A DNA stretch of 64,000 bases from contig DJQS01000008.1 of NCBI GenBank assembly GCA_002438785.1, positions 2,735 to 66,734 of the forward strand, written 5' to 3'. The position numbers and the translations under genes are program-made. This stretch comes from Bacillales bacterium UBA6380 (GTDB lineage Bacteria; Bacillota_I; Bacilli_A; RFN20; CAG-826). A model generated the notes under the pieces. That model was given only the letters and a program-made list of their open reading frames with translations. It did not search any database and was not told the DNA's origin. The number at the start of each line of letters is the position of its first letter. Position 1 is the stretch's first letter. Shown one piece after another: positions 5,681 to 46,593 of this stretch.

Positions 5681-5710
5681 CCTATAATCACAAGTGTTAT
5701 AGGTTTTTTT
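5681..5710. terminator. bidirectional rho-independent terminator (stem cctataa/ttatagg, then T7)
   Basis: 7-bp perfect stem, 9-nt loop and a T-run on the plus strand, with an A-run on the minus strand. It overlaps the stop codon of the convergent minus-strand gene. Confidence 0.6.
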
Positions 5711-6824
5711 ATTTATTATTATAAATTGATATATATATTTCTTTCTCTTTTATAGTTCCACCTGCATGATTTGCCACAAGTGGCTTAAATTTTGAACTTG
5801 AAGTTAATGGATTATTAAATGAATATTCACCTTTAGATATTAGGAAGTAGTCACCTAAAGTGTTAATTGCGTTAATATTATAATTATTTGAATACCCAAA
5901 AATATGTTTTTGTAAAATTTCATCTTTAGTTAATAAAATGAATTTATCTTTATAATATAAGTTATATGCTTTTATAAAATTTTCTGGATTTTCAACAAAA
6001 AAACTTGCAAATCTCCCTTCAATAAAAAAATTTTTAAATTTTAATGAGTTATAAAATAAAGGATACTCATCAATGAAAATATTTTTAACATTAATCATCC
6101 CATGATCAGCTACTAGTATAAATATGGTATTTGGATTATTGTTAACTAAGTTAGAAACTTTAATATCTAAAAGTTTAATTAAGTCTTTTAAACCATAAAA
6201 ATCTATTCCGTTCATATGCATATAATGATCAGGCTCGCAACAATAAAGGTATGTAAAATCAAAGTCTTTTATTTTTTTGCTAGCTTCTTCAAATAATAAA
6301 TCCAAATCATAATCATTATTTTCCTTTAGAAAATTAAAACCCATTAATTGAATTGCTTTGTATTTATTATTGTTATTAATAATTTTGATAAAGTTTGTAA
6401 TATTTAGAATTTTTTCTGTAATTGGTGGATAAATTTTTTCTTTAGTTAATGAATTTGTACTAGGAAATATATCAATAAAAGAATTTATTTTTGGAAAATA
6501 TTGAGACCATCCTATGTAACCAGTTTCAATTGGATATTTACCAGTTAGCAAGGAAGTAGTAGCGGCAACTGTAGTTGGAGGATAAATAGAATTAATTGTT
6601 TTAAAAACATGACTATAAATAAATGGGCAATATTCTTTGTATTTATCGATGATATTTTTGCCAAATCCGTCAAGAAGTATCAAACAAACGTTTTTATTTT
6701 TATTTTTATTTAAAATGTCATCAATATATTTTAAAGAATGATGAAATGTTTGACATTCGAATCTTTTTAATATTGAATTACTGAGATTTACTAAAGTTTC
6801 TTTTTTACTAAGTTCTAATTTCAT
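5709..6824 (-). CDS. alkaline-phosphatase superfamily protein (type I phosphodiesterase / nucleotide pyrophosphatase-like)
   Basis: 'VCLILLDGFG' and 'ILVADHGM' are the metal-ligand motifs of the AlkP-core / nucleotide pyrophosphatase family. Confidence 0.6.
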   Translation of the reverse strand: MKLELSKKETLVNLSNSILKRFECQTFHHSLKYIDDILNKNKNKNVCLILLDGFGKNIIDKYKEYCPFIYSHVFKTINSIYPPTTVAATTSLLTGKYPIETGYIGWSQYFPKINSFIDIFPSTNSLTKEKIYPPITEKILNITNFIKIINNNNKYKAIQLMGFNFLKENNDYDLDLLFEEASKKIKDFDFTYLYCCEPDHYMHMNGIDFYGLKDLIKLLDIKVSNLVNNNPNTIFILVADHGMINVKNIFIDEYPLFYNSLKFKNFFIEGRFASFFVENPENFIKAYNLYYKDKFILLTKDEILQKHIFGYSNNYNINAINTLGDYFLISKGEYSFNNPLTSSSKFKPLVANHAGGTIKEKEIYISIYNNK

Positions 6825-8000: not shown

Positions 8001-9815
8001 ATGAAAAAGAAAGGGTTGGCTTTGTGGACTGTGCTAACAATTGCCAGTGTATTACTTTTAGTACTTACTTTTTTATTTAGTAGTATCACTGAATGCGTTG
8101 GACTTTACACAAAAGACGCTAGCGAAATTACTTGGTTAAGTTTTGCTAATTTTTTTGCACCATTTGTTTATGGATTTAATGCTATAGCAAGTTTCAGTGT
8201 AAGATATTTAACAATAAGCTTAATTGTTGCTGTTGGATTATTTTTAATCGGAACGGTTGTATTATTTGTTTTAATGGGAGTTAAGAAAAAATGGAAGTAT
8301 TTAGGACAATTTTTTGTTCTATTAATTACCGCTGTTGTAGGTGTTTATTTATTATGCTTTATCTTTGATACTGATGCCTTTAATGGTATGAGTCCATCTA
8401 GACAAATGATTACAACTAACACATTCTATAATAGTTTGTTGCTTTTTACTTCTAATGGTAAGATTCCTGGAAATGTTATTACATCAACTATTTATTATTT
8501 GTTTTTAGTATTTATTGTTACAACAATTGTTGCAGTTTTTGGAATGACTATTTTGACAGCTATTAGACTTTTACAAACAAGAGTTGAAACTAATAATGCT
8601 GCTCCTGTTAAAGATGAAACTGTTAGTAATGCAAAAGTGAATGTTACTGAAGAGGAAAAACCTCTTGAAAAACCAACACCTAAGAAAAAAGTTGTTCTTG
8701 TTGTTAAAAGATATGATAGTTTTAAAGATGCCGGAGAAAAACCTGCTGAAAAACCTACTAATTATCCACATGAACAAGTAGTTGTTGAGCCATTAACTAG
8801 AGAAGATATTCGTCGTGCATTAAAAGAGGAGTTAGATGCTCGTTCAAAAGAAGAACAAAAAATTTCTTCTTACAACGAAATGAATAAATTAAAAGAAGAA
8901 CATTTAACTGTTAGTGAAGCTGATGCAACTAAGGTTGAAAAGGATGAACCACAAATTCCTACACCTGTTATTGTTGCTATTCCTACACCTGTTAAAGAAA
9001 AAGATTTAAATGAAGAATCGACTAAGGTTGAGCCAAAAGTAGAAAAAGAACCTTCTTTAACAAAAGAACAAATTAGGGATATTATTAAAGAAGAATTATT
9101 AAAAGCTTTAGAAGAATTAAAAAATCAAGAACCTGAAGTTGTAGAAGAGGTTGTAGAAGAAGTTCATGAAATTAAAGTACCAGTCGTCAAAAAAGTAGTT
9201 GAAGAAACTAAGACTGAGACTGAGCCTAATAATGAATTAGTAACTGAGGAAGTTAAAGAGGAACCGGTAGAGTCTAAAGAAGAATTAACAGAAGAATCTT
9301 CTACTACTAAACCTGTTGAAGAACAAAAGGCAACAGATGATAAAGAAGAACCAGTCGAAGAATTGGAAGTTAATAAGATTGAGAGAATACCTTTTGCACA
9401 AAGAATTAGAGAAGCTGATGCTGAAACTAAAGATAATTATAATCAAATAAAGTCATTGCTATTAAGTTATGGCTTAAAAAATAGAACAAGTAATGGCGGC
9501 GATGCTTTTAGATTGCATAAAGTTACATATTGTAAAATTACTGTTGCAGGAAAATCCTTGAAACTCTATTTAGCTTTAAACCCAGAAGATTATAAAAATA
9601 CAACTTTACCAATTAAAGATGCTTCTAGTAAAGCAATTTATAAAGAAATACCATTAGTTTTCAAAGTAAAAAGTGGTTTATCGCTTAGAAGAGCTGAACA
9701 ACTAATCACTGAAATGATGGACAAACACGGAATTGAACAAGCTGATCGTGTTGAAGTTAAAGATTATGCTTCTACATTAGAAAATACAACTGATGAAGAA
9801 GATAGTGAAGAATAG
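8001..9815 (+). CDS. membrane-anchored protein, paralog A: about 4 TM helices, an E/K/P-rich disordered linker and a conserved C-terminal domain of unknown function
   Basis: About 190 aa of hydrophobic N-terminus, then about 260 aa of acidic/lysine low complexity containing a 'TPVIVAIPTPV' motif. The C-terminal 115 aa are about 55% identical to the C-terminus of the next gene. Confidence 0.6.
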   Translation: MKKKGLALWTVLTIASVLLLVLTFLFSSITECVGLYTKDASEITWLSFANFFAPFVYGFNAIASFSVRYLTISLIVAVGLFLIGTVVLFVLMGVKKKWKYLGQFFVLLITAVVGVYLLCFIFDTDAFNGMSPSRQMITTNTFYNSLLLFTSNGKIPGNVITSTIYYLFLVFIVTTIVAVFGMTILTAIRLLQTRVETNNAAPVKDETVSNAKVNVTEEEKPLEKPTPKKKVVLVVKRYDSFKDAGEKPAEKPTNYPHEQVVVEPLTREDIRRALKEELDARSKEEQKISSYNEMNKLKEEHLTVSEADATKVEKDEPQIPTPVIVAIPTPVKEKDLNEESTKVEPKVEKEPSLTKEQIRDIIKEELLKALEELKNQEPEVVEEVVEEVHEIKVPVVKKVVEETKTETEPNNELVTEEVKEEPVESKEELTEESSTTKPVEEQKATDDKEEPVEELEVNKIERIPFAQRIREADAETKDNYNQIKSLLLSYGLKNRTSNGGDAFRLHKVTYCKITVAGKSLKLYLALNPEDYKNTTLPIKDASSKAIYKEIPLVFKVKSGLSLRRAEQLITEMMDKHGIEQADRVEVKDYASTLENTTDEEDSEE

Positions 9816-9827
9816 GAGAATCAAATT

Positions 9828-12005
9828 ATGAAAAAAATAAAATTAGTTGGTTGGCCTATAGTATTATTAGTATCTATATTATTGATGGGTGTAAGTGTCT
9901 TCTTTGCTTTCACTCAGCAAGGTTTAGAAATTCTAAAGTGGCCAATAGAAAGTAATGTACCTTTTTATGTAGCTAATGCTTTTAATGGAAGTAAAACTTT
10001 TTTAGGATTATGCAAAAACGCATTACTTCAAAGTTTTATTACCCCTTTTGTTAATTTCTCATTAAGCCCAATTACAATTGCTTTTTATGCTTGTTTTGGA
10101 GTATCAATCCTTTTAATGATTGTGCAAATTATCTATTTTGCAAAATCTAAAAAACCTTCGATGATTTTTTGGATAATTGTAACTTTAATGTTTGCTTTTG
10201 GTAGCATGATGGTTTGTGTTACTGTTCAACAATATTTCGGCGCTTCAGGTGAATATTTTATTGATAAAGCTAATGTTACTGAAATTAATGGTTATAAAGT
10301 AAATCAAGATGCTACTATCAAAAATTTATTATTAAATCCAAACGCAATGTTTGGTGGAAAATTTGCTAAAAAAGGCCTTGTAATGTGTGGCTTAGCTTGG
10401 CTATTTATTGTTAGTGTCGTATTATTTGTTATCTCTTATTTAGTCATTTTCATTCAAACGTTAGTTTATGCAAAAAGTCATAAATTTGATAAAGAACTTG
10501 CAAATAGTAATGCTAATGATGAGATTAATTATGATAATGTAGGCTTAGGTGGCACAACAAACAATATTAATACTGTTGGTAATTCATCACCTTTAATTGT
10601 TCAATATATAAATTCATATGGCCCTGATGCAAGATCAATGAATAATAATTGCTCTTGCCAATGTAATGATCAAACTCCTACTCAATATGGAAATTGTAAT
10701 TGTTCTCAACATATTCAAAATGTTGAAGAAGAAAAGCCTCTTACTAAAGAAGATGTTGAAAATATCATCAACAATGCTTTAAAAGAAACAAAAGAAACTA
10801 AAGAAGAAGTTTCTTATCAAAATGATGCTGGTGAAGAATTAGAATACGTAGATTTGGACGATCTTAAAAATTTAATTAAAGACCAAGTTAGTACTGCTAT
10901 TCATGAAGTAAATGCTGCAAAATCTGCAATCGAAGACAAAAAAGAGGTAGATTTACTCCCGGAAGAAACAAGCACTTATGATGAAAAACCATTTGCTAAG
11001 GATGTCAAAGTTGTAAGTGCAGATAATGATACATCTGACATCGCTGTTGATAACGAAAAGACAAAGGTAAAATTAACTACACCTATTGTTGTTGCTGTTC
11101 CTACTACTTTTGAACCTGAAAAAGAAACTGATTGCTCAGATTGTGATTGTACAAACAATTCTCAAGAAGAAACAGAAACTTTAACTGAAGATGAAATAAG
11201 AAATTTAGTTAGTGAAGAACTTAAATCAGCTTTGAAAGATTTTGCTAAACCAAAGCAAAAGAAAATTATTAAAAAGATAATTAATAAAGAGGTTCCAGAA
11301 TACATTGAAGAAGAGAAACCTGATGTAGAAAGTGATGTTTCTAATGCAAATAAAGAAACGTCTGTTTCTGAAGAACCTACAAATGTTATTGAAACTCCTA
11401 TAAGTATCGAAAAAGAAGTTACTGTCGAATCATCTTCAAAAGATCTTAAGGAAGAAAACGAAGTAAGTAAGGAAGTTCCACTTCAAGAAGAAAAACCTGC
11501 AGAAGTTCAATTAAAAGTTCAAAAAAATAATGAAGTTCGTGGAAAAGAATCTACAATTGAAAAAGGCGAAGTTGTTAGATTAAATTTCTTTGAAAGAATT
11601 GCTTCAGGTGATGATTTATTAAAATCTAATTATAATGCTATTAAAAATTTATTAATGAGTTATGGTTTAAAAGATAGATTATCTAATACTGGTGATACAT
11701 TTAGACTACATAAAGTTACATATGCTAAAATCACTTGTTTAGGTGATTCGTTAAAAATTTATTTAGCTCTTGATCCTAAAGATTATGTTTCAACTGCTTT
11801 ACCAATTCAAGATGTCTCTAGTAAGGATTCTTATAAAGACATTCCATTAGGATTTAAAGTTAGAAGTGATTTATCTTTAAGAAGAGCAAATGAATTGATT
11901 CAATCTACAATGAGAAAAGCAAATCTTGAAGCTCTTAGTGATTATCAAGTGGTAGACTTTGCTAAAGAAATTGAAGATGAAGTTTCAAAGAAAGTAGATA
12001 AATAA
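9828..12005 (+). CDS. membrane-anchored protein, paralog B: about 4 TM helices, Cys-rich and acidic linker, and the same conserved C-terminal domain
   Basis: Same architecture as the 8001 gene. The linker has Cys clusters 'NCSCQCND...GNCNCSQH' and 'DCSDCDCT', plus a 'TPIVVAVPTT' motif. The C-terminus 'FRLHKVTYAKIT...LKIYLALDPKDY...SLRRANELI' matches paralog A. Confidence 0.6.
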   Translation: MKKIKLVGWPIVLLVSILLMGVSVFFAFTQQGLEILKWPIESNVPFYVANAFNGSKTFLGLCKNALLQSFITPFVNFSLSPITIAFYACFGVSILLMIVQIIYFAKSKKPSMIFWIIVTLMFAFGSMMVCVTVQQYFGASGEYFIDKANVTEINGYKVNQDATIKNLLLNPNAMFGGKFAKKGLVMCGLAWLFIVSVVLFVISYLVIFIQTLVYAKSHKFDKELANSNANDEINYDNVGLGGTTNNINTVGNSSPLIVQYINSYGPDARSMNNNCSCQCNDQTPTQYGNCNCSQHIQNVEEEKPLTKEDVENIINNALKETKETKEEVSYQNDAGEELEYVDLDDLKNLIKDQVSTAIHEVNAAKSAIEDKKEVDLLPEETSTYDEKPFAKDVKVVSADNDTSDIAVDNEKTKVKLTTPIVVAVPTTFEPEKETDCSDCDCTNNSQEETETLTEDEIRNLVSEELKSALKDFAKPKQKKIIKKIINKEVPEYIEEEKPDVESDVSNANKETSVSEEPTNVIETPISIEKEVTVESSSKDLKEENEVSKEVPLQEEKPAEVQLKVQKNNEVRGKESTIEKGEVVRLNFFERIASGDDLLKSNYNAIKNLLMSYGLKDRLSNTGDTFRLHKVTYAKITCLGDSLKIYLALDPKDYVSTALPIQDVSSKDSYKDIPLGFKVRSDLSLRRANELIQSTMRKANLEALSDYQVVDFAKEIEDEVSKKVDK

Positions 12006-12099: not shown

Positions 12100-12681
12100 A
12101 TGGGTTATGATGATATAAATACTGGTTTTATTGAGGTTATCGCAGGACCAATGTTTGCTGGTAAGTCTGAAGAGTTAATAAGAAGAATTAATAGACTAAA
12201 ATATGCGAAAAAGAAGTTTTTAGTGTTTAAACCAATTATTGATGATCGTTATAGCATGACAGAAGTTGTATCTCATCAAAAAAGAAGAGAAGTTGCTATA
12301 CCAATTAATGAACCTCGTGAAGTTTTTAATTATATAAAGCCAGATACCGAAGTTGTTTGCATTGATGAAGTTCAATTTTTCAATGATGACATGTTCTATG
12401 TTATTAATGAATTAGCAGATTCTGGTAAAAGGGTTATTTGTGCTGGATTAGATTGCGATTTTCGAGGAGAGCCCTTCCCTCTTACTGCAAAATTATTAGC
12501 TAGAGCTGAATATGTTACTAAATTAACTGCTATTTGTGTTTGCTGTGGTAAAGAAGCCACGATGACCCAAAGACTTATTAATGGTATACCTGCTTATTTT
12601 GATGACCCAATAGTTTTAGTTGGTGCTAGCGAATCTTATGAACCTCGCTGTAGACATTGTCACAAAGTTCTTAAAAGATAA
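12100..12681 (+). CDS. tdk: thymidine kinase
   Basis: '[16 protein letters not shown]' is the P-loop of the Tdk family. C-terminal zinc ribbon 'CxxC...CRHC'. Confidence 0.9.
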
Positions 12682-12797
12682 AAAAACTACTAAATAATTA
12701 CTAAAATATAAGTTTCCAAGAATAAAATATTGGAACTTATTTTTTTATTCTTTACATATGTTAATTTATAAGAGCAACTTTTTTGGAGGATAATAAT

Positions 12798-15113
12798 ATG
12801 AATAAGATTATAAAAAGAGATGGGCGTATCGTAAAATTTGATAGAAATAAAATTTTTAGTGCTATTTTTAAAGCTTTTGCTTCTTTAGATATAGATAATG
12901 AGGATTTAATAAATAATATTGTTGATGAAGTAATAGATCGAATAAATAATAAATATAATGATAAATTGCCAAGAGTTGAAGATGTTCAGGATGAAATTGA
13001 AAAAGTTTTAATTGAGCATAATGAAGCTGAAGTAGCTAAGGCTTATATTTTATATCGTGCGAATAGAACTAGAATTAGAGAAAGTAAGACTCATTTAATG
13101 GAAACTTTAAAAGATATTACTTTTAAAGATGCTAAAGATAATAATACAAAAAGAGAAAACGCAAACATTGATGGCGATACTGCGATGGGTTGTATGCTAA
13201 GATATGGCAGTGAATCAGCTAAGGAATTTTATTTATCTAATGTAATTGATCCTCGCTTTGCTAAGGCTCATCGAGAAGGTGATATTCATATTCATGATAT
13301 GGATTTTTACACATTAACTATGACTTGTTGCCAAATTGATATCTTAGAATTATTTAAAAATGGATTTTCAACTGGGCATGGATTTTTAAGGGAGCCTCAA
13401 TCTATTAGAAGTTATTCTTCGTTAGCTTGTATCGCAATACAAGCTAATCAAAATGATATGCATGGTGGACAATCTATTCCTAATTTTGATTATGGCATGG
13501 CTCCTGGAGTTATTAAAACATATCGTAAAAGTATTGTAAGAAATATTTGTATTGTTTTAGGAACCTATGTCGATCATATTTGTAAAGATGAAGCAAAAGA
13601 AATTGTTAAAGAAGCTGAAGAATTATCTCATGATGAATGTCGTATCGGACATAAAGATTTTGAAAATTCTTTATATAATGTGATAGCAACTAGATTTGAA
13701 GACTTAGACGATCCTCTTAAATTAACTAATTTCATTTTAAAGACATCTTATAATGAAACTAGAGAAGAAACATATCAAGCAATGGAGGCTTTAATCCATA
13801 ATTTGAATACAATGCATTCACGTGCAGGTGCCCAAGTTCCTTTTTCTAGCTTAAATTATGGAACAGATACTTCTATTGAAGGAAGAATGGTTATTGATTG
13901 CCTACTTGATGCTACTTTAGCTGGTTTAGGTGATGGAGAAACTCCTATTTTTCCAATTCAAATTTTTAAATTAAAAGAAGGAGTAAGTTATAATAAAGAA
14001 GATCCAAATTATGATTTATTCAGAAAAGCTATTCGAGTAAGTGGAGCAAGATTGTTTCCAAATTTCTCTTTTTTAGATGCACCATTTAATTTGAAATATT
14101 ATAAAAAGGGCGATTATAAGACAGAAATCAGCTACATGGGATGTAGAACCCGTGTTATGGGGAATGTTGATAAAACTAAAGAAATTACTACTGGTCGAGG
14201 TAATTTAAGCTTTACATCTATTAATTTGCCAAGGCTTGGTATTAAACATAAAAATGATATCGATGGATTCTTTAATGAGTTAGATGAAAAAATGGATCTT
14301 GTAAAAGATCAATTATTAGAAAGATTTAAAATTCAATGTTCTAAGAAAGTTTACAACTTTCCATTTTTAATGGGTCAACATATTTGGCTTGATAGTGATA
14401 AATTAAAGTGGAATGACACAATTGAATCTGTAATTAGACATGGTACTTTAACTGTTGGATTTATTGGATTAGCAGAATGCTTAAAGGCTTTAATTGGCAA
14501 GCATCATGGTGAAAGCGATGAAGCGCAAGAATTAGGTGTAAAAATTATTGGTCATATGAGAGATAAGACTGATGAATATACAAAAAAATATAATTTAAAT
14601 TTTAGTTTAATTGCAACACCTGCTGAGGGCCTTAGTGGTCGTTTTGTAAAAATAGATAAAGAAAAATATGGAATAATTCCTGGTGTTACAGATCGTGATT
14701 ACTATACGAATTCATTCCATATTCCTGTTTATTATAAAATCTCTATTTTCGATAAGATAAAGAAAGAAGGTCCATACAATGCTTTAACTAATGGTGGACA
14801 TATTACTTATGTTGAAGTTGATGGCGATGTTGCTAAAAATGAAAAAGCATTTGAAAGTATTATTAGATGTATGCATGATAATGGTATTGGATATGGCTCT
14901 GTTAACCATCCTATCGATCGTGACCCTGTTTGTGGATATAATGGCATAATTGATGAATGCTGTCCTAAATGCGGTAGACATGAAGATGACACTAAATTCG
15001 AAAGAATTAGAAGAATTACTGGATATCTTGTTGGAACAACTGAGCGTTTTAATGATGCTAAAAAGGTTGAATTATCCCAAAGAGTTAAGCATTTAACGAA
15101 AGATAATTTATAA
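12798..15113 (+). CDS. nrdD: anaerobic ribonucleoside-triphosphate reductase (class III RNR)
   Basis: N-terminal ATP-cone 'MNKIIKRDGRIVKFDRNKI'. C-terminal glycyl-radical region 'RITGYLVG' and zinc-binding 'CxxC...CPKC'. GGAGGA ribosome-binding site 7 nt upstream of the ATG at 12798. The six-frame track starts earlier, at a TTG at 12783. Confidence 0.9.
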   Translation: MNKIIKRDGRIVKFDRNKIFSAIFKAFASLDIDNEDLINNIVDEVIDRINNKYNDKLPRVEDVQDEIEKVLIEHNEAEVAKAYILYRANRTRIRESKTHLMETLKDITFKDAKDNNTKRENANIDGDTAMGCMLRYGSESAKEFYLSNVIDPRFAKAHREGDIHIHDMDFYTLTMTCCQIDILELFKNGFSTGHGFLREPQSIRSYSSLACIAIQANQNDMHGGQSIPNFDYGMAPGVIKTYRKSIVRNICIVLGTYVDHICKDEAKEIVKEAEELSHDECRIGHKDFENSLYNVIATRFEDLDDPLKLTNFILKTSYNETREETYQAMEALIHNLNTMHSRAGAQVPFSSLNYGTDTSIEGRMVIDCLLDATLAGLGDGETPIFPIQIFKLKEGVSYNKEDPNYDLFRKAIRVSGARLFPNFSFLDAPFNLKYYKKGDYKTEISYMGCRTRVMGNVDKTKEITTGRGNLSFTSINLPRLGIKHKNDIDGFFNELDEKMDLVKDQLLERFKIQCSKKVYNFPFLMGQHIWLDSDKLKWNDTIESVIRHGTLTVGFIGLAECLKALIGKHHGESDEAQELGVKIIGHMRDKTDEYTKKYNLNFSLIATPAEGLSGRFVKIDKEKYGIIPGVTDRDYYTNSFHIPVYYKISIFDKIKKEGPYNALTNGGHITYVEVDGDVAKNEKAFESIIRCMHDNGIGYGSVNHPIDRDPVCGYNGIIDECCPKCGRHEDDTKFERIRRITGYLVGTTERFNDAKKVELSQRVKHLTKDNL

Positions 15114-15631
15114 TGACTGACTTTATAAGAATTGCTAGTGTCATTGACGATTCTATTGTTGATGGTCCTGGTATAAGGATGACAATTTTCTTTCAAGGAT
15201 GTAATCATAAATGTTTCGGTTGCTTTAATAAAGAAACATGGGATTTTCAAGGCGGACATTTATGTGACATTAATAAAATTTATGAAGCCGCTATGAAGAA
15301 TCCTCTATTAAGCGGAATTACTTTAAGTGGAGGCGATCCTATTTATCAAGTTAGTGGTGCATTAAAATTAATAAATTTGTTTCAAAATACAAATTTAGAT
15401 ATTATGGTTTATACTGGTTTCACATATGAAGAACTTCTCGAAATGGAAAAAAATAATGAAGATTTGCATACTTTTTTAGATAAAATAGATTATTTAGTTG
15501 ATGGTCCTTTTGAAATTGATAAAAAAGATATTGGATTAAAATTTCGTGGTTCGTCAAATCAAAGAATTATTGATATGAAAAAAACTAGAAAAGAAGGAAA
15601 AATTATTACTACTGATTTTTCAAATTACTAA
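15113..15631 (+). CDS. nrdG: anaerobic ribonucleotide reductase activating protein (radical SAM)
   Basis: 'GCNHKCFGC' is a CxxxCxxC radical-SAM cluster motif. Glycine-rich 'LSGGDP'. The start overlaps the nrdD stop. Confidence 0.85.
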   Translation: MTDFIRIASVIDDSIVDGPGIRMTIFFQGCNHKCFGCFNKETWDFQGGHLCDINKIYEAAMKNPLLSGITLSGGDPIYQVSGALKLINLFQNTNLDIMVYTGFTYEELLEMEKNNEDLHTFLDKIDYLVDGPFEIDKKDIGLKFRGSSNQRIIDMKKTRKEGKIITTDFSNY

Positions 15632-16157
15632 TATTTTCAACATAAATATCATTTATTAGCATTGATATGTCTTTAATAGGAATATTGGAAGTGTCAATTG
15701 TATAGTTGACACTTTTAATATTGTCATTAGAGAAATTTTCATCATCAATTTCTAATCTAGTGGAGATTGTAATTTCATCATCTAATCGATTTATCATTCT
15801 TTGTTTTCTAATTTCTTTTTTGCAATTTAAAAAGAATGTAATTATGGTTGGATCATTCAACTTGTTAAAAGCTATTAATCCGTTTGGATCAACTATTAAA
15901 ATTGTATTAAGACTTATATTCTTTTTTTCAGTTCCATAATAATTATTATTATATAAAGTGTATTCTATTAATTTATGTTCTTTAATTAAATGGAGAAAAC
16001 TAGTTTTATCAACAAAATGGTAATCTATCCCATCTATTTCTCCAATTCTTTTATTTCTAGTTGTAGTTGTAACAAACTTCTTATAGTTATAATTTTTACA
16101 TAAATATTTTGATATTTCTGTTTTTCCACTAGCACTTGGGCCTACCAATATAATCAT
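15609..16157 (-). CDS. gmk: guanylate kinase (short form)
   Basis: 'ILVGPSASGKTE' P-loop, 'TTTTRNKRIGEIDGIDYHFV' and 'YYGT' match Gmk signatures. Its 3' end overlaps the nrdG 3' end by 23 bp in convergent orientation. Confidence 0.65.
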   Translation of the reverse strand: MIILVGPSASGKTEISKYLCKNYNYKKFVTTTTRNKRIGEIDGIDYHFVDKTSFLHLIKEHKLIEYTLYNNNYYGTEKKNISLNTILIVDPNGLIAFNKLNDPTIITFFLNCKKEIRKQRMINRLDDEITISTRLEIDDENFSNDNIKSVNYTIDTSNIPIKDISMLINDIYVENISNLKNQ

Positions 16158-16244
16158 ATAGAAATTCTATAATAATTTAAAAATATTTTAAACTTTAAAA
16201 TTTTACCCCCATATATTTTGTTTTATTAACGACTTGTTATATGA

Positions 16245-17288
16245 ATGATTATGAATTATAAAATTTTATTTGCTACACTACCATGCTTATTATCTATATC
16301 TTCATTAAAAAAAGAAGTAAAAGAAGAAATTGAAGTTTATGATAAGCATATATATCAACAATCAAACTTATTTAATGTTAATGATTTTACATTTTCAATT
16401 AATAATGATGGTACATTTGAAGGTGATTTTTCACTTGAATCAAAAATAACAACAACACCTTTTTATGTAGATTTACTATATATTGAAGATGGAGAAACTC
16501 AAAAATCTTATGATCGAATTAGTATCCATAAACTAATTACGACAAGTAATAAAAAATATACATATAGTTTTAGTCTTAGTTTTTCTAAAAATATTGATAT
16601 TATAAATTTTGAGATTTCTTTTAGTATGCCTATATTAAAGAATTATTTAAATATTAAATTTAGTATCGATAATCCATTAGCTAGGGTAGAAATTTCTAAT
16701 GAGAAAAAATTATTTTATAAATATGAGTTTAAAAATTATATTGGATATAATTATTATTATTTATTTAAACCAACTAGTTTTTTAAACGCGCAAAAGCGTA
16801 TATTTTATTATGATTATTTTTCATTCAATAATTTTTATATTGAATCTAATTTTGATAACGCTTTTGATAGTGCTTATTTTTATATCGAACCTAAATATAC
16901 ACATTTATTAAGAATATTTAATCAATTTAATTCAATCTATCCTTTATACAAATTTTTAAAACTTAATCATTTTCATGATTTAAATAGAAGCTTCATTATG
17001 TTTAAAAATATTTATTATTATAATCCATTAACAAATTTTATGTATTTAACTAATAATGGCAAATATAAAGAAGTTCAAAATAGAATTTATATGCCTTTAA
17101 AATATTATGATATATATAAAAACTTTTCAATTGGACTCTATTTAAAATCTTTTAGTCCAAAAAAGTATCAAATTTTTTATACATATAATATGTTTTTCGA
17201 AAAAAATTATAAAAAAGATTACGCAGTTATTTATAAAGATAATTTCCAAATTACAAGTGATGATACCTTGGAGAATATTAAATTATGA
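16245..17288 (+). CDS. secreted N/Y/F-rich protein, hypothetical; first gene of the CpaF-ATPase locus
   Basis: N-terminal signal-like segment 'ILFATLPCLLSISS'. Highly biased N/Y/F/K composition. The stop overlaps the start of the next ORF. Confidence 0.45.
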   Translation: MIMNYKILFATLPCLLSISSLKKEVKEEIEVYDKHIYQQSNLFNVNDFTFSINNDGTFEGDFSLESKITTTPFYVDLLYIEDGETQKSYDRISIHKLITTSNKKYTYSFSLSFSKNIDIINFEISFSMPILKNYLNIKFSIDNPLARVEISNEKKLFYKYEFKNYIGYNYYYLFKPTSFLNAQKRIFYYDYFSFNNFYIESNFDNAFDSAYFYIEPKYTHLLRIFNQFNSIYPLYKFLKLNHFHDLNRSFIMFKNIYYYNPLTNFMYLTNNGKYKEVQNRIYMPLKYYDIYKNFSIGLYLKSFSPKKYQIFYTYNMFFEKNYKKDYAVIYKDNFQITSDDTLENIKL

Positions 17289-17695
17289 TGAATGTAGTAT
17301 TTATTTTTATAACTACAATATTATTATCCATATTTAATATTTTTAATATTACATATAAAGGAAATGAAATAAATAGAATTGTTATGAATATACCGCTTAA
17401 TTTGCTTAAAAATAGTATTGTTATTGAAGAAATTACAGAAGATGATTTTAATGCTTATTTTTTAAAAGATGAAGTAGAAAAAGACATTAAAAAATATTTA
17501 AATACATCTTTAAAAGGGAAAATAAATGAATATAATTTATCATTCTTTTATTATAAATATGATAGTAATGATATTTTAATAAAAGACAATAGTAATAAAC
17601 CGATTAATTTTCAATTACATTTTCATTGCAATTATTATAAAAATTATGATCTTAATCGATATTTAAAATTTAGGATTGAAGAGATTTGGGGGTAA
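17285..17695 (+). CDS. small membrane-anchored protein, hypothetical
   Basis: Single N-terminal TM helix 'VVFIFITTILLSIF'. Translationally coupled to its neighbours (ATGA overlap). Confidence 0.4.
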   Translation: MMNVVFIFITTILLSIFNIFNITYKGNEINRIVMNIPLNLLKNSIVIEEITEDDFNAYFLKDEVEKDIKKYLNTSLKGKINEYNLSFFYYKYDSNDILIKDNSNKPINFQLHFHCNYYKNYDLNRYLKFRIEEIWG

Positions 17696-17697
17696 TT

Positions 17698-18750
17698 ATG
17701 GAATGCGACAAAGTATTAGAATTTATTGAAAACTCTTTTTTAAAAGATTTATTAAATAACGAGAATATTACTGATATTTCATATAATGGAGAAACTATTT
17801 ATTATCAAGATAATTTAAAAGGCAGAATTAAAAGTTTAATAGAAGTAAATAGTAAAGAAGCTTATGATTTCATTAGACAAATAGCGAACTTATCTGACGC
17901 TCAATTTAGTTACACTGATCCGTTATTAGATATTAGTGTTGGAAAATATCGTATTAATGCTACTCATTATGCTATTTCTAGAAAAAAGAGAGAAAAATCA
18001 ATTTCATTTAGTATCCGTATAGGTTTTAATGAACTTAGAATTAAAAATGATAATTCTTTTATAACTAATAAGTGTAATGATTTAATTAATATTTTTTTAA
18101 AAAATAATAATTCAATAATAATTGGCGGATTAACAAGTAGTGGTAAAACAGAATTACAAAAATATTTGATTTCTACATTAAAGCCTGCAACAAGAATTAT
18201 AGTTATCGATAATGTAGATGAATTAGATATTGATTATATAAATTCTTCTTTAGACATTCAAACATGGTTAAATTTAGAAAAAGATAAAAAAATAAGTTTT
18301 GATCTACTTGTAAAAAACGCTCTTAGAAATAATCCTGATTATTTAATTGTTAGTGAAGCTCGAGGGGAAGAGATGTTATCAATATTAAATAGTGCGATGA
18401 GCGGTCATCCAACTATTACAACAATTCATTCTAAAAATATAATGAATATGTATTCAAGAATTACTAGAATGGCTATGTTAAAAAATCAGGCTTTAAAATT
18501 TGATGAAACTTTCATTGATGTTTTAGATCAATTTAAATTAATTATACATGTTAAAAAAGAAATAAAAGAAAATAACACAATAAAAAGATATATTGATTCT
18601 ATTGCTACAAATAGATTTAATAAAATTAGAATTCTATATAGATATCCTAACTATTATTATAAATTACCTAATTCAATTAAATATGATCTTAATCTAAGTA
18701 ACGATGAATTTAATAGCTTAAAAGAAAAATGGGAAGATAACTATGCTTAA
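17698..18750 (+). CDS. CpaF/TadA/VirB11-family secretion ATPase
   Basis: Walker A 'IIIGGLTSSGKTE'. Walker B / Asp box 'DYLIVSEARGEE'. His box 'MSGHPTITTIHSKN'. GGGGGT ribosome-binding site upstream of the ATG at 17698; the six-frame track starts at a TTG at 17686. Confidence 0.8.
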   Translation: MECDKVLEFIENSFLKDLLNNENITDISYNGETIYYQDNLKGRIKSLIEVNSKEAYDFIRQIANLSDAQFSYTDPLLDISVGKYRINATHYAISRKKREKSISFSIRIGFNELRIKNDNSFITNKCNDLINIFLKNNNSIIIGGLTSSGKTELQKYLISTLKPATRIIVIDNVDELDIDYINSSLDIQTWLNLEKDKKISFDLLVKNALRNNPDYLIVSEARGEEMLSILNSAMSGHPTITTIHSKNIMNMYSRITRMAMLKNQALKFDETFIDVLDQFKLIIHVKKEIKENNTIKRYIDSIATNRFNKIRILYRYPNYYYKLPNSIKYDLNLSNDEFNSLKEKWEDNYA

Positions 18751-19516
18751 AAGATTTCTAATATATTTAATAATTTGCCTAATTATTGGCGGGATGAATT
18801 TTTATATAACAAATAATGTTTATTTTAGCATTGGACTATTTATTATTGGAATATTGATATTTTCATTAGGCATTGATAAATCTATTAATCAATTTTTTAT
18901 TAAAGAAAAAAAGACAAAAGAGGCGATAAATTTTATTTCCAATTTCATAATTACTTTGTCAATTAATAAAAGCATATTGTCAACTTTTAATACCGTCGAA
19001 GAATCTTTCTCTAAAGATTTAAAAAATCAGGTTTATTTAATTAATAATCTAAATGTAGAAGAAAAAATAAAGTATCTAAGTAAATATTTTGCCTTATCTA
19101 TTTATGATGTGTTTTTAAATTTAATCGATCAATATATCTATAACGGAGGAGACGTTTTAAAGATTTCTCAATTACTTTTATTTGATGTTAGAAAGATTGA
19201 AGAAAAACTTGATTCACATAATGATATATTGATCAAAAAACTCATGGAATTCATTATTTTATGGATTATGATATTTGTAATTGTAATAATCATGAAATTA
19301 TCATTAGCTGATTATTTTTTAAAAATAGCATCATTAGATTATTTTAAATATGGAATGGGAATATTTTATCTTGGATTTTATCTAAATTTACTTATATTTA
19401 CATTACATGGATGTAATTTAGATTTTATTGAAACAAGTAAAATAAAAAATGAAGAAGTAACAAAAAAATGGAAGGTTAAAAATGTCAAAGTTAAAAGAAA
19501 AGATAGAGTCTTGTAA
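18743..19516 (+). CDS. polytopic membrane protein, TadB/GspF-like platform candidate
   Basis: N-terminal TM pair, a cytoplasmic about 120-aa domain and C-terminal TM helices. Its position directly after the ATPase, with 8-nt coupling, fits a platform protein. The family call rests on context only. Confidence 0.45.
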   Translation: MLKRFLIYLIICLIIGGMNFYITNNVYFSIGLFIIGILIFSLGIDKSINQFFIKEKKTKEAINFISNFIITLSINKSILSTFNTVEESFSKDLKNQVYLINNLNVEEKIKYLSKYFALSIYDVFLNLIDQYIYNGGDVLKISQLLLFDVRKIEEKLDSHNDILIKKLMEFIILWIMIFVIVIIMKLSLADYFLKIASLDYFKYGMGIFYLGFYLNLLIFTLHGCNLDFIETSKIKNEEVTKKWKVKNVKVKRKDRVL

Positions 19517-20141
19517 TCTAAATTATAAAAGAGAAATTTCAACTTTAATTATTTTAAATATTATTATTTTAATACTTAGTTTTGTTATTTTCATTTTTTC
19601 AAAAAATATTAGACTTTTGCTTTATTTTGCAATAATATTGGTATTATTTAATTTTTATTATTTAACAAAATACAATCGAATAATAGTTAAAAGAAAAAAT
19701 GATTTAACATTTGATTTTATAAATGTATTTAGTTATTTTCGAATTTATATTTCAAATTATAGAAATGTTTATATGTCAATTAAAGAAATAAGTAATTATG
19801 CTTCACCTTTTATAAAAATAAAACTTATAGAATTATTAGATAATATTGATAACGATAAAACCATCAAACCATTCATAACTTTTGCTAATTATTTTAATGA
19901 TAAAAAAATAGAAGAAGTAATGATAGCAATTTATGAAATGGTTAATGAAGGAAATAATGAAAATTATATTAACCAATTTGTAAGCATTTTTGAAACTTAT
20001 AAAGCTAGGATTGAAAAAACTAAAGAAGAGAAAAGAATAAATACTTTCAATAGAATTTGTTCTTTAAGTATCATCGGTGTAGGTATTTTAATGATTATTA
20101 TCATGCTTGGGATTGTAAATATGATAGGAGATCTAATCTAA
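19482..20141 (+). CDS. polytopic membrane protein, TadC/GspF-like platform candidate
   Basis: Same topology as the previous gene (TM, soluble domain, TM). GGAAGG ribosome-binding site. Overlaps the upstream gene. Confidence 0.45.
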   Translation: MSKLKEKIESCNLNYKREISTLIILNIIILILSFVIFIFSKNIRLLLYFAIILVLFNFYYLTKYNRIIVKRKNDLTFDFINVFSYFRIYISNYRNVYMSIKEISNYASPFIKIKLIELLDNIDNDKTIKPFITFANYFNDKKIEEVMIAIYEMVNEGNNENYINQFVSIFETYKARIEKTKEEKRINTFNRICSLSIIGVGILMIIIMLGIVNMIGDLI

Positions 20142-20506
20142 TGAGTAATAAACTAGCTTTTATTTTATCTATCTATATTATTTTAATGACTTTTTTATTT
20201 GGAACTGATTTAGTTATGTTACAAGTAAATTATTCAAATCTTGATTCATTAAGTCAATTAATATCTTTTAAAATAAGTGATTATGGAATTGATGAAAATG
20301 GTGATATTGATTCTACAATAATAGAATTTGCAAAAAACAATTTAAATGCGGACTTAATTAGAGCTGATGAAAGCTCAAAGCAATATAAAGAAGGTGATTT
20401 ATATCCTTATTTTCTTTTTAAAGAATATGATGCCATTATGCTTTCTATTACTCCAATTAAAGTTCAAATTAAGCGATATGCAGTTATCGGAATAAATCAC
20501 ACTTAA
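20141..20506 (+). CDS. small membrane-anchored protein, minor pseudopilin-like (TadE-like?)
   Basis: The ATG overlaps the upstream stop (TAATG). Single N-terminal hydrophobic helix 'LAFILSIYIILMTFLFG' followed by a soluble domain. Confidence 0.35.
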   Translation: MSNKLAFILSIYIILMTFLFGTDLVMLQVNYSNLDSLSQLISFKISDYGIDENGDIDSTIIEFAKNNLNADLIRADESSKQYKEGDLYPYFLFKEYDAIMLSITPIKVQIKRYAVIGINHT

Positions 20507-20517
20507 GGAGGAAATTT

Positions 20518-20709
20518 ATGAGTGAAATTAAAGGTCAATTATTAGGTATTGTGTTGGTATTAGCTATTTTTGGAGCTGTTTCTGGAGCATTATATTCAGC
20601 ATTTAAAACTTCTGCTGATAATGTTGCTGTAAAAGTAAGTGCAGATACCAAAGTCCCAGCAAATAGTAAAGCTATTTCTAACAATAATCTATTAAAATTT
20701 AATAAGTAA
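20518..20709 (+). CDS. 63-aa Flp/pilin-like peptide
   Basis: 'MSEIKG-QLLGIVLVLAIFGAVSGAL' has a charged leader ending in G, then a hydrophobic helix. Size and position match a Flp-type major pilin. GGAGGA ribosome-binding site. The canonical Flp G/xxxxEY motif is not present. Confidence 0.4.
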   Translation: MSEIKGQLLGIVLVLAIFGAVSGALYSAFKTSADNVAVKVSADTKVPANSKAISNNNLLKFNK

Positions 20710-20719
20710 TTTATGATAT

Positions 20720-20751
20720 AAGGTCTATTAGTTATAGGCCTTTTATTTTTT
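20720..20751 (+). terminator. rho-independent terminator after the pilin-like gene
   Basis: 9-bp stem aaggtctat/ataggcctt with one G-U pair, 4-nt loop, then 'tttatttttt'. Confidence 0.7.
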
Positions 20752-20781
20752 GTGTGCTAATATTATAAAGAGGTAATATTT

Positions 20782-36034: not shown

Positions 36035-37660
36035 GTGAAGAAGTTAAAATTAATTGCATTGTCTTTATTTGCTACAACTGGATTATTAGCAAGTTGTGGA
36101 GGAAATAATGGAGGAGTTGGAGCTGATTATACAGTTGATATGAGTATTGATACAAGAGGTGTAAATATTGAAATGTGGACATCTTTTGGCCAATCTATTA
36201 ATAGTAATTTAGAAAATATCTTAGAAGAATTTAAAAATGAAACTGGTATTACTGTTACTCATACTTCAAAAGGTGGATATGAAAATCTTCGTGAAGCGAT
36301 AAGTTTAGCAGCTTCCGGGCAAAAATATCCTAATGTTTGTATTGGTTATCCCGATCATTTTGCTGGTTATATTAATTCAGATATTCAACTTCGACTTGAT
36401 TATTTAATTGAACATGATAGTGAAATTCCTACTAGTAGAACAAATGAAGATGGGTCAACCTTTTATGAATTAGATCCTATTGATATGTCTAGTTTTTATA
36501 GTGATTATATGAAAGAAAACCAAAATCTTGAATTTAAAAAAGATGGGAGTGGTTATACTTTAGGATTACCTTTTAATAAATCTACTGAAGTAATGGTTTA
36601 TAATAAAACTTTTATTGATTGGGCAAGTACTCAAAATTCTAACATTAAAGTCCCTGAAACATATGATGAATTAGAATCAGTTGGAAAAGCTATATTTACT
36701 TTACTTGATAATGCTCCTAGGGCTTTTAGTAGTTCTAAAGGTATTTTTGATTATGACGATAAACATGTTGCTACTAAAGGCTATGTTTTAGGAAATGATG
36801 GAAAGGTCTATCTTAATGAATCCGAATGTTCTAAGGCTACAAAAAATGATTCAGTTATTGATTTAACTTCAGTTACTTCAACAATGCCATTTAAAGTATT
36901 TTCTTACGATTCTCAATCGAATTTCTTTATTTCTTTAATTAGAAATTATGGTGGCGAGTATACTCATTTAGATAAGTCAACAAGAAAAGGATATGTTGAT
37001 TTTAATAATGATGTAACAAAAGAAGCCTTAACAATGGTTAAAAAATTATCTAATGAAAATATTTTAGGTATACCAAAGACTTGGGCTAAAGAATCCTTTT
37101 CTACTGATGCATTTAAACTTGAATTAACATTATTTAGTGTTTCTAGTAGTGCTGGAGCTAGTAAGAATGTAAATGGAAATAGATATGAAATGGGTGTAAG
37201 TACTGCACCTGTTAAAGATTTAAGTAATAAAAATGTTATTTCTCAAGGAACAAATTTAGCTATTTTAGATAAGGGTAGCGATAAAGAAATTGTTGCTAGT
37301 TGGAAATTGTTAAAATATTTAACACAAAAAGCTAATGGTGAATTTGCTTATGAATCGGGATATTACCCTTGTTCAACTATTGGTATGAATAGTGATATTT
37401 ATCAAAATTTCTTAAGTGGTAAAGGAGTTAGTGATTCTGTTGAAGATAAAGCTAAAAGAGCAGCAGCTAATGTTAATGCTAATGTTTATTTAAATGATTC
37501 ATCAAATTGGAATAAATTCGTTGATGATGCTTTTGTTGGATCGAGTTTAGTTAGAACTGAGGCTGAAACAATTATTCCTCAAGTTATTGAAGGAGCTTTA
37601 ACAATTGATGAAATTTTGAATAATGCTTATTCTAATTTATCTTCTTATGTAAAAAAATAA
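36035..37660 (+). CDS. lipoprotein, ABC transporter substrate-binding protein (family 1), paralog 1
   Basis: Lipobox 'LLASCGG'. About 38% identical to the next gene. The SBP-like fold is inferred from context and length. Confidence 0.6.
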   Translation: MKKLKLIALSLFATTGLLASCGGNNGGVGADYTVDMSIDTRGVNIEMWTSFGQSINSNLENILEEFKNETGITVTHTSKGGYENLREAISLAASGQKYPNVCIGYPDHFAGYINSDIQLRLDYLIEHDSEIPTSRTNEDGSTFYELDPIDMSSFYSDYMKENQNLEFKKDGSGYTLGLPFNKSTEVMVYNKTFIDWASTQNSNIKVPETYDELESVGKAIFTLLDNAPRAFSSSKGIFDYDDKHVATKGYVLGNDGKVYLNESECSKATKNDSVIDLTSVTSTMPFKVFSYDSQSNFFISLIRNYGGEYTHLDKSTRKGYVDFNNDVTKEALTMVKKLSNENILGIPKTWAKESFSTDAFKLELTLFSVSSSAGASKNVNGNRYEMGVSTAPVKDLSNKNVISQGTNLAILDKGSDKEIVASWKLLKYLTQKANGEFAYESGYYPCSTIGMNSDIYQNFLSGKGVSDSVEDKAKRAAANVNANVYLNDSSNWNKFVDDAFVGSSLVRTEAETIIPQVIEGALTIDEILNNAYSNLSSYVKK

Positions 37661-37675
37661 TTTTAAGGGGGAAAT

Positions 37676-39232: not shown

Positions 39233-39234
39233 AG

Positions 39235-40758: not shown

Positions 40759-40760
40759 TT

Positions 40761-41240
40761 ATGAAAAAAAGTTTAATTTTAACATTAGGTTTAGGAATAT
40801 TCTTATTAGGAAGTTGTGGAAATAATGATGTTTCAACATTTGATCCTAATAATTGGACTGATAAAGATTATTTAGATAAAGCTTTTAAAGGAACTGTCGC
40901 TAGTTATCAAAATGGCATTAGTTTTACTGATGAAACTGTTGAATATTTATTGTTTAAAGATCGTAGTTCTCAAAAGAATTTTTACGTTTGTGGAATTAGC
41001 GATGTTGTTGGAAAAGTGAATAAAGAAAGTGTAACAAAAACTATTGCTTTTGATTGGATAGTGAGTGATGACTCTTTATTTAAAGTAAATGATATTTCTA
41101 GTATTCCAGGAGCTAAATTATATACTCCTAAATATTCAGAAATTAAAGAAGATACAAAGGTTACATTAAAAGGTATTGCTTATTTAAATAGTGATACTAA
41201 AACAGTAACTTATAACTTAGTAATTAAAGCTAATGCTTAA
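40761..41240 (+). CDS. small lipoprotein, hypothetical
   Basis: Lipobox 'LGSCGNN'. 159 aa. Confidence 0.5.
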   Translation: MKKSLILTLGLGIFLLGSCGNNDVSTFDPNNWTDKDYLDKAFKGTVASYQNGISFTDETVEYLLFKDRSSQKNFYVCGISDVVGKVNKESVTKTIAFDWIVSDDSLFKVNDISSIPGAKLYTPKYSEIKEDTKVTLKGIAYLNSDTKTVTYNLVIKANA

Positions 41241-41285
41241 TTACTAGTTTGAATAGATTAAGGTAAAATTTTTAGGGAGGATTTT

Positions 41286-44144: not shown

Positions 44145-44269
44145 ATTAGAAATATTTAATTGACTAAAGGGGTTTAAGAATATAGTTATCTTAAACCCCT
44201 TAGTTTTATTAAAAAGTCTTTAAATATTGGATTAAATTTATAAAATTATATTAGAAATAGGAGATATTA

Positions 44270-46480: not shown

Positions 46481-46593
46481 AACAATTGTAAAATTATAAA
46501 AAATACTTTATTTTAGCTGAGTTTTTATATAGAATACTTTGGTAATCGGATACCCCCAAAATAACGAAGATTACATTTTTTAAGGAGAAAAAA

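Follow-up and report, generated by a model that had tools for sequence, protein, structure and literature searches.

Type IV filament (TFF) machines are generically defined by an ATPase, an inner-membrane platform and a pilin (PMC6668835). The monoderm tad locus of B. breve has the gene order tadZ-tadA-tadB-tadC-flp-tadE-tadF, with tadV located elsewhere, and Tad systems were proposed to derive from archaeal type IV pili, Epd/EppA-dependent and relatives (PMC6668835). In TANB77, an order of uncultured gut Bacillota, the conserved Tad-like cluster comprises CpaB, TadZ/CpaE, an ATPase of 640 aa, TadC and TadB fused in one protein, and seven pilin-like proteins of larger size (PMC11680825). Here we analyse an operon of seven genes, p1 to p7, carried by a 64,000-nucleotide stretch of contig DJQS01000008.1 from Bacillales bacterium UBA6380 (hereafter, the window). 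We read this operon as a minimal Tad-like or archaeal-like TFF machine with p7 as the major subunit, and we consider it rather probable that the machine belongs to a TFF clade that current family models barely recognise. The reading is based on the association of an ATPase, a platform split in the way typical of Tad, and pilin-like subunits, the short leader of which ends in Gly. Indeed, one conserved operon encodes a T2SSE ATPase (p3), two half-size platform proteins (p4 and p5), a pilin-fold protein (p6) and a tiny peptide (p7).

The p3 protein matched the Pfam family T2SSE (PF00437) with an E-value of 1.2e-21, above the gathering score. The Walker A (GxTxSGKTE), Asp box (IDNVDEL), LIVSEARGxE and His box (GHPTITTxH) motifs were invariant across 17 p3 homologs, as were the Walker B residues. 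A first-pass annotation of the window had recognised a type IV filament-type machine with an ATPase carrying CpaF/TadA/VirB11 motifs, and both points are borne out. At the level of individual families, p3 stayed below every NCBIfam equivalog cut-off. It scored 104.6 bits with VirB11 (TIGR02788, cut-off 249.95), 95.5 bits with the TadA-like model, 85.8 bits with TrbB (cut-off 304.55), 84.5 bits with FlaI and 63.2 bits with ComGA (NF041000, cut-off 300). Against PDB sequences, the matches were with afGspE (2OAP, 5e-14), FlaI (2e-12), the VirB11 protein HP0525 (1e-11) and CpaF (1.5e-10). The CpaF match was confined to residues 138-265 of p3, whereas archaeal GspE, FlaI and VirB11 matched better over a longer stretch. 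By these comparisons, p3 does not resemble CpaF more closely than it does VirB11 or the archaeal ATPases. Within the ATPase tree of Denise et al. (PMC6668835), sequence comparison places p3 in the Tad/archaeal/VirB11 part, without assignment to a single family.

The p4 and p5 proteins are paralogs (hhalign probability 93.8%, E = 1.8e-7). Each contains one GspF-like domain, and a platform of the GspF/PilC/TadB type expected of a TFF machine is thus present. Neither protein gave any Pfam (including T2SSF) or NCBIfam match, and a sequence-profile search of the PDB found none. A profile search with p4 returned 28 close relatives, all without a Pfam label. A hidden Markov model (HMM) search of 1.84 billion proteins with p4 gathered a small closed family of 309 clusters, with no bridge to T2SSF among the strong members listed. 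The connection with T2SSF came from plasmids. In B. badius pPM400 and in a P. larvae plasmid, an ATPase lies between two ~240-aa proteins annotated at NCBI as T2SSF family or FlaJ. These two platform proteins matched the full Pfam T2SSF domain with 25.7 and 24.6 bits (cut-off 25.2), the one paired with p5 being that at 24.6 bits (E = 2.7e-5). In hhalign comparisons, the p4 profile aligned with the downstream plasmid protein (97.2%, E = 4e-11) and the p5 profile with the upstream, second one (96.1%, E = 2.8e-9), the cross-pairs being much weaker. The earlier description of p4 and p5 as paralogous proteins in the TadB/TadC position was thus right as to paralogy; a direct Pfam T2SSF match was lacking, and the link to T2SSF is made via the plasmid homologs.

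Two proteins have pilin-like features. A structure model of p6 shows a confident type IV pilin-like fold, with a long helix plus a sheet, and agrees with the pseudopilin-like character first attributed to this membrane-anchored protein. The p6 homologs start with M-x-x-K-x-(G/A/S) followed by a hydrophobic helix. Seven of 39 p6 homologs weakly matched the TadF model (best E = 0.07), and no TadE (PF07811) match was found for p6; no pilin family model was matched significantly. In p7, the leader MSEIKG precedes a Gln and a hydrophobic helix of ~20 residues, and the C-terminal 25-45 residues vary freely. The p7 proteins share the start M-S-E-I-K-G-Q-L-L-G-I-V-L-V; in their alignment no variation was seen at M1, E3, K5, G6 and F18, and conservation is at least 90% at Q7, L9, G10, L13, V14 and F29. 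Of 70 homologs, 69 carry the leader M[SGA]E[ILV]KG and 63 have Gln at +1. Overall, p6 and p7 both have a leader of six residues ending in G/A/S with a Lys shortly before its end, and p7 is the only small open reading frame (ORF) of the window with a class-III-like signal. Glu at +5 is absent from both proteins. The Flp EY motif is absent from p7, the mature N-terminus of which would be QLLGIVL, as had been noticed together with the Gly-ending leader. The Flp_Fap model (PF04964) matched none of 38 p7 homologs, even at E<=10, and archaeal Pilin_N gave weak matches with two of the 38.

The operon consists of seven co-oriented ORFs on the + strand of the window (16245-20709), with overlaps of 1-35 nt or gaps of at most 11 nt (Table 1). 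The p1/p2, p3/p4, p4/p5 and p5/p6 pairs overlap by 4, 8, 35 and 1 nt, respectively, p2 and p3 are separated by 2 nt, and the 11-nt gap between p6 and p7 harbours an AAGGAGG Shine-Dalgarno sequence. Within the operon, a strong Shine-Dalgarno sequence was found only at p7, the last gene before the terminator, and p7 looks highly expressed. Folding of the terminator gave -12.2 kcal/mol (z = -4.1), and 0 of 200 shuffled sequences were equally stable. The p3 start is most likely the ATG at 17698, rather than the TTG at 17686 first listed, because the 350-aa form is identical to a database protein (P0001) and to the gene called in the related locus L085. This was the sole correction to the seven coupled genes and strong terminator originally described. 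In a scan covering one genome per GTDB species, relatives were found in 303 genomes, and locus-level comparisons were made with the best 80 of these, from which 80 loci were fetched. The p2-p7 order recurs in essentially all of the 80 loci where the contig allows, so that the arrangement is not due to chance.

Table 1. Features of the p1-p7 operon (positions in the window) and plasmid loci compared with it.
Feature	Position or accession	Strand	Description
p1	16245-17288	+	347 aa, N/Y-rich, N-terminal signal peptide
p2	17285-17695	+	136 aa, bitopic membrane protein, N-terminal transmembrane helix
p3	17698-18750	+	350 aa, T2SSE/VirB11/TadA-superfamily secretion ATPase, motor
p4	18743-19516	+	257 aa, polytopic platform protein, GspF/TadB-type fold
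p5	19482-20141	+	219 aa, platform paralog, TadC position
p6	20141-20506	+	121 aa, pilin-fold protein, candidate minor pilin/pseudopilin
AAGGAGG ribosome-binding site	20505-20511	+	6 nt before p7 start, read from sequence
p7	20518-20709	+	63 aa, Flp-sized, candidate major filament subunit
Intrinsic terminator	20720-20752	+	hairpin 20720-20742 plus T-run, ends operon
Plasmid loci L087-L091	NZ_CP019656.1, NZ_CP082364.1, CP068980.1, NC_016967.1, NZ_CP009900.1		

Upstream of the ATPase gene, the signal-peptide protein and the small membrane-anchored protein recognised at first reading were both recovered, and neither matches a known family. The p1 position is occupied by a 316-425-aa signal-peptide protein, in several cases with a lipobox, in almost all of 76 loci (a size range that leaves aside three shorter ORFs truncated upstream by the contig end). 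An iterative HMM search united the p1 homologs into one family with a mean column identity of ~17%; no Pfam or PDB sequence match was found for p1. The p1 protein is a fast-evolving secreted protein or lipoprotein and a candidate surface accessory or adhesin. The p2 position is kept in at least 67 loci. The protein has a conserved G..INR....P motif and no leader motif; it gave no significant match with Pfam, p6 or its plasmid counterparts, and no relatives were detectable outside the lineage. It is possibly an assembly or minor-subunit protein.

A total of 1,457 p3 homologs was detected, with Candidatus Onthovivens as the sole named source. Nearly all of the best 80 genomes are uncultured gut, rumen or faecal metagenome-assembled genomes labelled Bacilli, Mollicutes, Onthovivens, Enteromonas or Fiminaster; a few short contigs in bins of unrelated taxa look mis-binned. 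The p2-p7 order is constant wherever the contig is long enough, although the ATPases are only 45-76% identical. In the window, nrdD, nrdG and a divergent gmk lie upstream of the operon, and acpP, tRNA-Asn and tRNA-Glu downstream. The position between gmk and acpP is shared with the five loci with inspected flanks, and CNNM genes stand in place of nrdDG at loci L001-L004. Because of the conserved order and of the gmk/acpP setting in the inspected loci, we take the operon to be a vertically inherited core locus rather than an island. The GC content of the operon (16001-20000) is ~20%, as compared to ~28-29% in the immediate flanks and ~25% for the window. A horizontal island was considered and rejected, since other membrane/lipoprotein stretches are just as rich in AT and synteny of the locus is preserved throughout the lineage. 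Comparable dips in GC content were seen at membrane/lipoprotein regions at 26-28 kb, 30-32 kb and 44-50 kb of the window.

The operon was then compared with described systems. It resembles monoderm Tad/Flp loci by one small ATPase of the bifunctional type, two half-size platform paralogs directly downstream of it, a pilin-sized peptide of ~60 aa, a ~120-aa pilin-like protein with a transmembrane anchor, and the lack of a secretin and of a peptidase gene within the operon. However, TadZ and CpaB/RcpC are missing: no ParA-like or SAF-domain protein is encoded in the operon, and p1 and p2 showed no such matches. Further differences are the two extra upstream proteins p1 and p2, the six-residue p7 leader without Glu5-Tyr6, the order of the pilin-like genes (p6 then p7), platforms that Pfam T2SSF does not detect and an ATPase that is not specifically CpaF-like. 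Membership of the Tad family was thus not substantiated, as neither a Flp G/XXXXEY motif nor TadZ, RcpC/CpaB or TadV was found. Overall, the machine functions in the manner of a monoderm Tad pilus, but that it belongs to the Tad family cannot be demonstrated.

The archaeal type IV pili are a second point of comparison. EppA substrates are pilins that lack Glu5 and have Gln at +1. The p7 peptide shares these two features, the best PDB matches of p3 are archaeal (afGspE 2OAP and FlaI), and weak Pilin_N matches were obtained. In contrast to archaeal pili, two genes encode the platform, the host is bacterial and the QxSxExxxL motif is not preserved. No homolog of EppA, FlaK or PibD was found. The TANB77 cluster is similar in being a lineage-wide, previously unannotated pilus cluster of uncultured gut Bacillota recognised mainly via structure; it is nevertheless a different family of loci. 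No secretin, Peptidase_A24, VirB4 or VirD4 was detected among 27 window proteins scanned nor among the called genes flanking four homologous loci, in agreement with what had been reported for the operon at the outset.

Several observations weigh against a TFF machine. Besides lacking Glu+5 and the Flp EY motif, p7 shows no significant match to pilin families or to the plasmid peptides described below. In these peptides, the residue at the equivalent site is not a Gly, and cleavage may therefore not be common to both groups. In hhalign comparisons with bona fide Ralstonia TadB, neither p4 nor p5 was significant. A prepilin peptidase was not found among the membrane ORFs of the window (Pfam, all polytopic ORFs), and no ORF with a G-x-G-D-type motif was found in 1.26 Mb (the window plus 91 loci). 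Finally, as the organism is uncultured, no filament has been seen. Two polytopic proteins of the window, at 741-1925 (394 aa, 7 transmembrane segments) and 57438-58091 (217 aa, 6 transmembrane segments), had no Pfam match; both were considered as prepilin peptidases and rejected, as they have no GxGD-type motif.

Three other explanations were weighed. The one that best survives, though we regard it as unlikely, is that the same machine builds a short pseudopilus serving DNA uptake, competence-like and possibly for nucleotide scavenging, or pushing p1-like proteins across the envelope. Its core parts are the same as those of Com and type II secretion pseudopili, and the operon is like ComG in being a TFF machine of a monoderm, in which a small ATPase is combined with pilin-like proteins anchored by a transmembrane helix. 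Tad pili have reportedly been linked to DNA uptake in Micrococcus. For Liberibacter, such a link is made in PMC8513845. The salvage genes tdk, nrdDG and gmk are nearby, and the window also encodes a 5'-nucleotidase and a nucleotide pyrophosphatase. However, this synteny may be coincidental and it varies, the nrdDG genes being replaced in some loci as mentioned above. An assignment to ComG itself was rejected: the ComGA score is far below the cut-off, the platform is split whereas ComGB is a single two-domain protein, and no G|FTLxE-type leader, as the N-terminal motif of ComGC, is present. As for secretion of p1-like proteins, p1 has its own Sec-type signal peptide. Given the nucleotide-salvage neighbourhood, DNA uptake is a live alternative as the function of the operon.

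Less probable still is an ATPase-driven membrane complex that makes no filament, with p7 as a small subunit or regulator and the pilin-like model of p6 reflecting a coincidental helix-plus-sheet topology. The lack of significant similarity of p7 to pilin families and the missing peptidase, in the window membrane ORFs as well as in the 1.26-Mb motif scan, would fit such a complex. Yet a short Gly-ending leader shared by two proteins beside a T2SSE/T2SSF pair is a hallmark of TFF systems and counts against it. The sporulation channel SpoIIIA was rejected. Indeed, the SpoIIIAA model TIGR02858 matched p3 with only E = 0.026 (13.8 bits), whereas the VirB11, TadA and FlaI models reached 1e-24 to 1e-30. 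Moreover, gene number, content, sizes and order do not fit spoIIIA, and only the GspF-like fold is common with SpoIIIAB.

The third explanation concerns the relatives of the operon on conjugative plasmids. In a tblastn search of PLSDB with p3, Firmicutes plasmid ATPases came first (E = 1e-46 to 1e-17, ~30% identity over nearly the full length), before TrbB (1e-14 to 1e-7), Campylobacter VirB11 (2e-12) and CpaF (1e-8, core only). The module was found on pAW63/pXO2/pBT9727, Listeria pLM80-type plasmids, Enterococcus faecium pZB18, which we take to be a pHT/pMG1-type plasmid, B. badius pPM400 and the P. larvae plasmid. On the last two plasmids, what was observed is limited to the ATPase and the platform-like protein on either side of it, within a transfer region that also has genes for VirD4, VirB4 and a VirB6-like protein. 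In the pLM80-type plasmids, pZB18 and pXO2/pAW63, the order is a ~120-130-aa transmembrane protein, the ATPase, two T2SSF-like platform proteins of ~270 aa and ~250 aa, a pilin-fold-like protein of ~115-120 aa, and one or two peptides of 48-56 aa, which is the layout of p2-p7. Comparison with these plasmid families by hhalign gave probabilities of 100% for the ATPase, 73% for p4 with platform A, 95.9% for p5 with platform B and 93.8% for p6; p2 and p7 were not significant. The plasmid peptides (48-56 aa) start with MLDQNTDR followed by a hydrophobic helix, and in pXO2 the first platform gene is frameshifted.

The plasmid modules differ from the chromosomal operon in several respects. They lie beside VirB4, VirD4 and VirB2-like pilin genes, whereas the chromosomal operon has no such neighbours. 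The plasmid ATPases have 70-120 additional N-terminal residues as compared to p3, and a very large surface protein is encoded upstream of the plasmid module, where the chromosomal operon has p1. In a rough neighbour-joining tree of the ATPases, built with one CpaF and no archaeal sequences, the chromosomal ATPases formed a clade of their own (100/100 bootstraps) that was the sister group of the plasmid clade (91/100) and not nested in it, with VirB11, TrbB and CpaF outside. The pAW63 ATPase was called VirB11 and its neighbours hypothetical (PMC1196294; likewise PMC9484302), and in pLM80 the module genes are co-regulated (PMC9484302). A CPBP-family intramembrane glutamic endopeptidase gene was observed in pZB18 a few kb upstream of the module (L090, 1662-2108), and this enzyme is conceivable as an alternative processing enzyme for the small peptides.

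A true VirB11/TrbB type IV secretion system was rejected because of the sub-cut-off scores, of the lack of VirB4 and VirD4 in the window and flanks, and of the pairing of the ATPase with T2SSF-type proteins. Genuine VirB11 proteins are not known to be accompanied by platform proteins of the T2SSF family. The weakest explanation, a leftover or domesticated conjugative element in which p3 would act in the manner of VirB11 for a type IV secretion system encoded elsewhere, would account for the nearest annotated relatives of p3, p4, p5 and p6 being in plasmid transfer regions with VirB4, VirD4 and VirB2-like genes and for the VirB11 name of the pAW63 ATPase in the literature (PMC1196294), but we hold it for very improbable, since the chromosomal ATPases form their own clade next to the plasmid one, no relaxase, VirB4 or VirD4 was found within ~8-10 kb of four loci or among the window proteins scanned, and the operon keeps its order in a housekeeping-gene setting. 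The contrast first drawn between a Tad-like and a conjugative system was too sharp, because for four components the nearest relatives, arranged in the order of the operon, are in conjugative transfer regions beside VirB4/VirD4. The chromosomal locus has no such neighbours itself.

A broader proposal can be made, although we offer it tentatively and regard it as more doubtful than the TFF reading itself. The operon may represent the chromosomal founder of a TFF clade that has gone unrecognised and that would be common to reduced, possibly wall-less gut Bacilli and to Gram-positive plasmid transfer regions (pAW63/pXO2, pLM80, pHT-type). In this clade, peptides of ~50-60 aa that have ultra-short leaders and lack Glu5 would serve as subunits, and their maturation, if it takes place at all, would depend on an unlinked or non-A24 enzyme. 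The plasmid version would be an overlooked mating/contact filament and the chromosomal version a fibre for attachment to hosts or partners. According to a 2025 review, Gram-positive type IV secretion systems are devoid of VirB11 homologs (PMC12857230). If true, the proposal would contradict the statement that Gram-positive conjugation lacks VirB11-type ATPases and pili.

If the operon encodes a TFF machine as favoured here, a p3 hexamer would dock on a p4/p5 heterodimer in the membrane. The p7 and p6 proteins would enter the membrane and lose their six-residue leaders (MSEIKG|Q and MxxKxG|) to a prepilin-type peptidase encoded elsewhere. Assembly would be primed by p6, perhaps with p2, and ATP hydrolysis would extract p7 subunits from the bilayer and add them to a thin helical fibre similar to that of Flp. 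The most likely role of p1 would be that of a surface or tip partner conferring binding specificity. The homologous plasmid modules belong to conjugative transfer regions, and by analogy the likeliest function would be contact with other cells or surfaces. In a gut bacterium with a reduced genome, this could mean attachment to partner microbes, mucus or particles.

The host lineage provides the context of the operon. Candidatus Enteromonas corresponds to GTDB order RFN20, family CAG-826 (PMC8035907). The host had been called Mollicutes-like and the presence of such a system in it unusual. The lineage is indeed Mollicutes-related, the label is fair, and no description of such a system in this lineage was found in the open-access literature consulted. 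Seven consecutive genes for signal-sequence proteins, most with a lipobox-like Cys, were observed at 36035-48519 of the window; this run fits a Mollicutes-like, lipoprotein-rich surface. It includes one Big_2-domain protein and one 5'-nucleotidase, the product of 44270-46480 being less clearly lipobox-like. Nucleotide-salvage genes cluster around the operon (12100-16157; 5709-6824 on the - strand; 44270-46480), comprising thymidine kinase (tdk), anaerobic ribonucleotide reductase (nrdD/nrdG), guanylate kinase (gmk), a nucleotide pyrophosphatase/phosphodiesterase and the surface 5'-nucleotidase lipoprotein. Two adjacent genes at 8001-9815 and 9828-12005 encode large membrane proteins of 604 and 725 aa with zero Pfam match. 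This pair is kept upstream of tdk in loci L085 and L086, and its first member begins with MKKKG followed by a hydrophobic helix.

Codon usage was also inspected. CGG is absent from 19,464 codons (48 window ORFs), and CGA, CGT, CGC, AGA and AGG are all present. In the related genus Onthovivens, CGG reportedly encodes Trp (PMC13092985), and in the CAG-288 genus Enterosoma AGG reportedly encodes Met. Here, the AGG codons of p1, p2 and p5, three in all, were translated as Arg.

No prior description of the operon in RF39/RFN20, or of its relatives on Gram-positive plasmids, was found in the open-access literature. This agrees with the undescribed variant suggested in the first-pass annotation. The operon also reveals an annotation gap: genome annotation misses it because six of its seven proteins have no family assignment. 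TFF genes were reported to be missing from just two groups, one being the class Mollicutes and the other an order (PMC3244431). The operon appears to be the sole machinery for surface filaments in a gut and rumen lineage that is widespread and uncultured and has reduced genomes, and a conserved TFF operon in these uncultured relatives of the Mollicutes bears on attachment to hosts or partner microbes, or on DNA uptake by auxotrophs. On the plasmid side, the block of "VirB11 plus hypothetical proteins" of pAW63/pXO2, Listeria and Enterococcus is exposed as a TFF-type module. Since these plasmids live in cultivable, genetically tractable hosts, the function of the family is directly testable.

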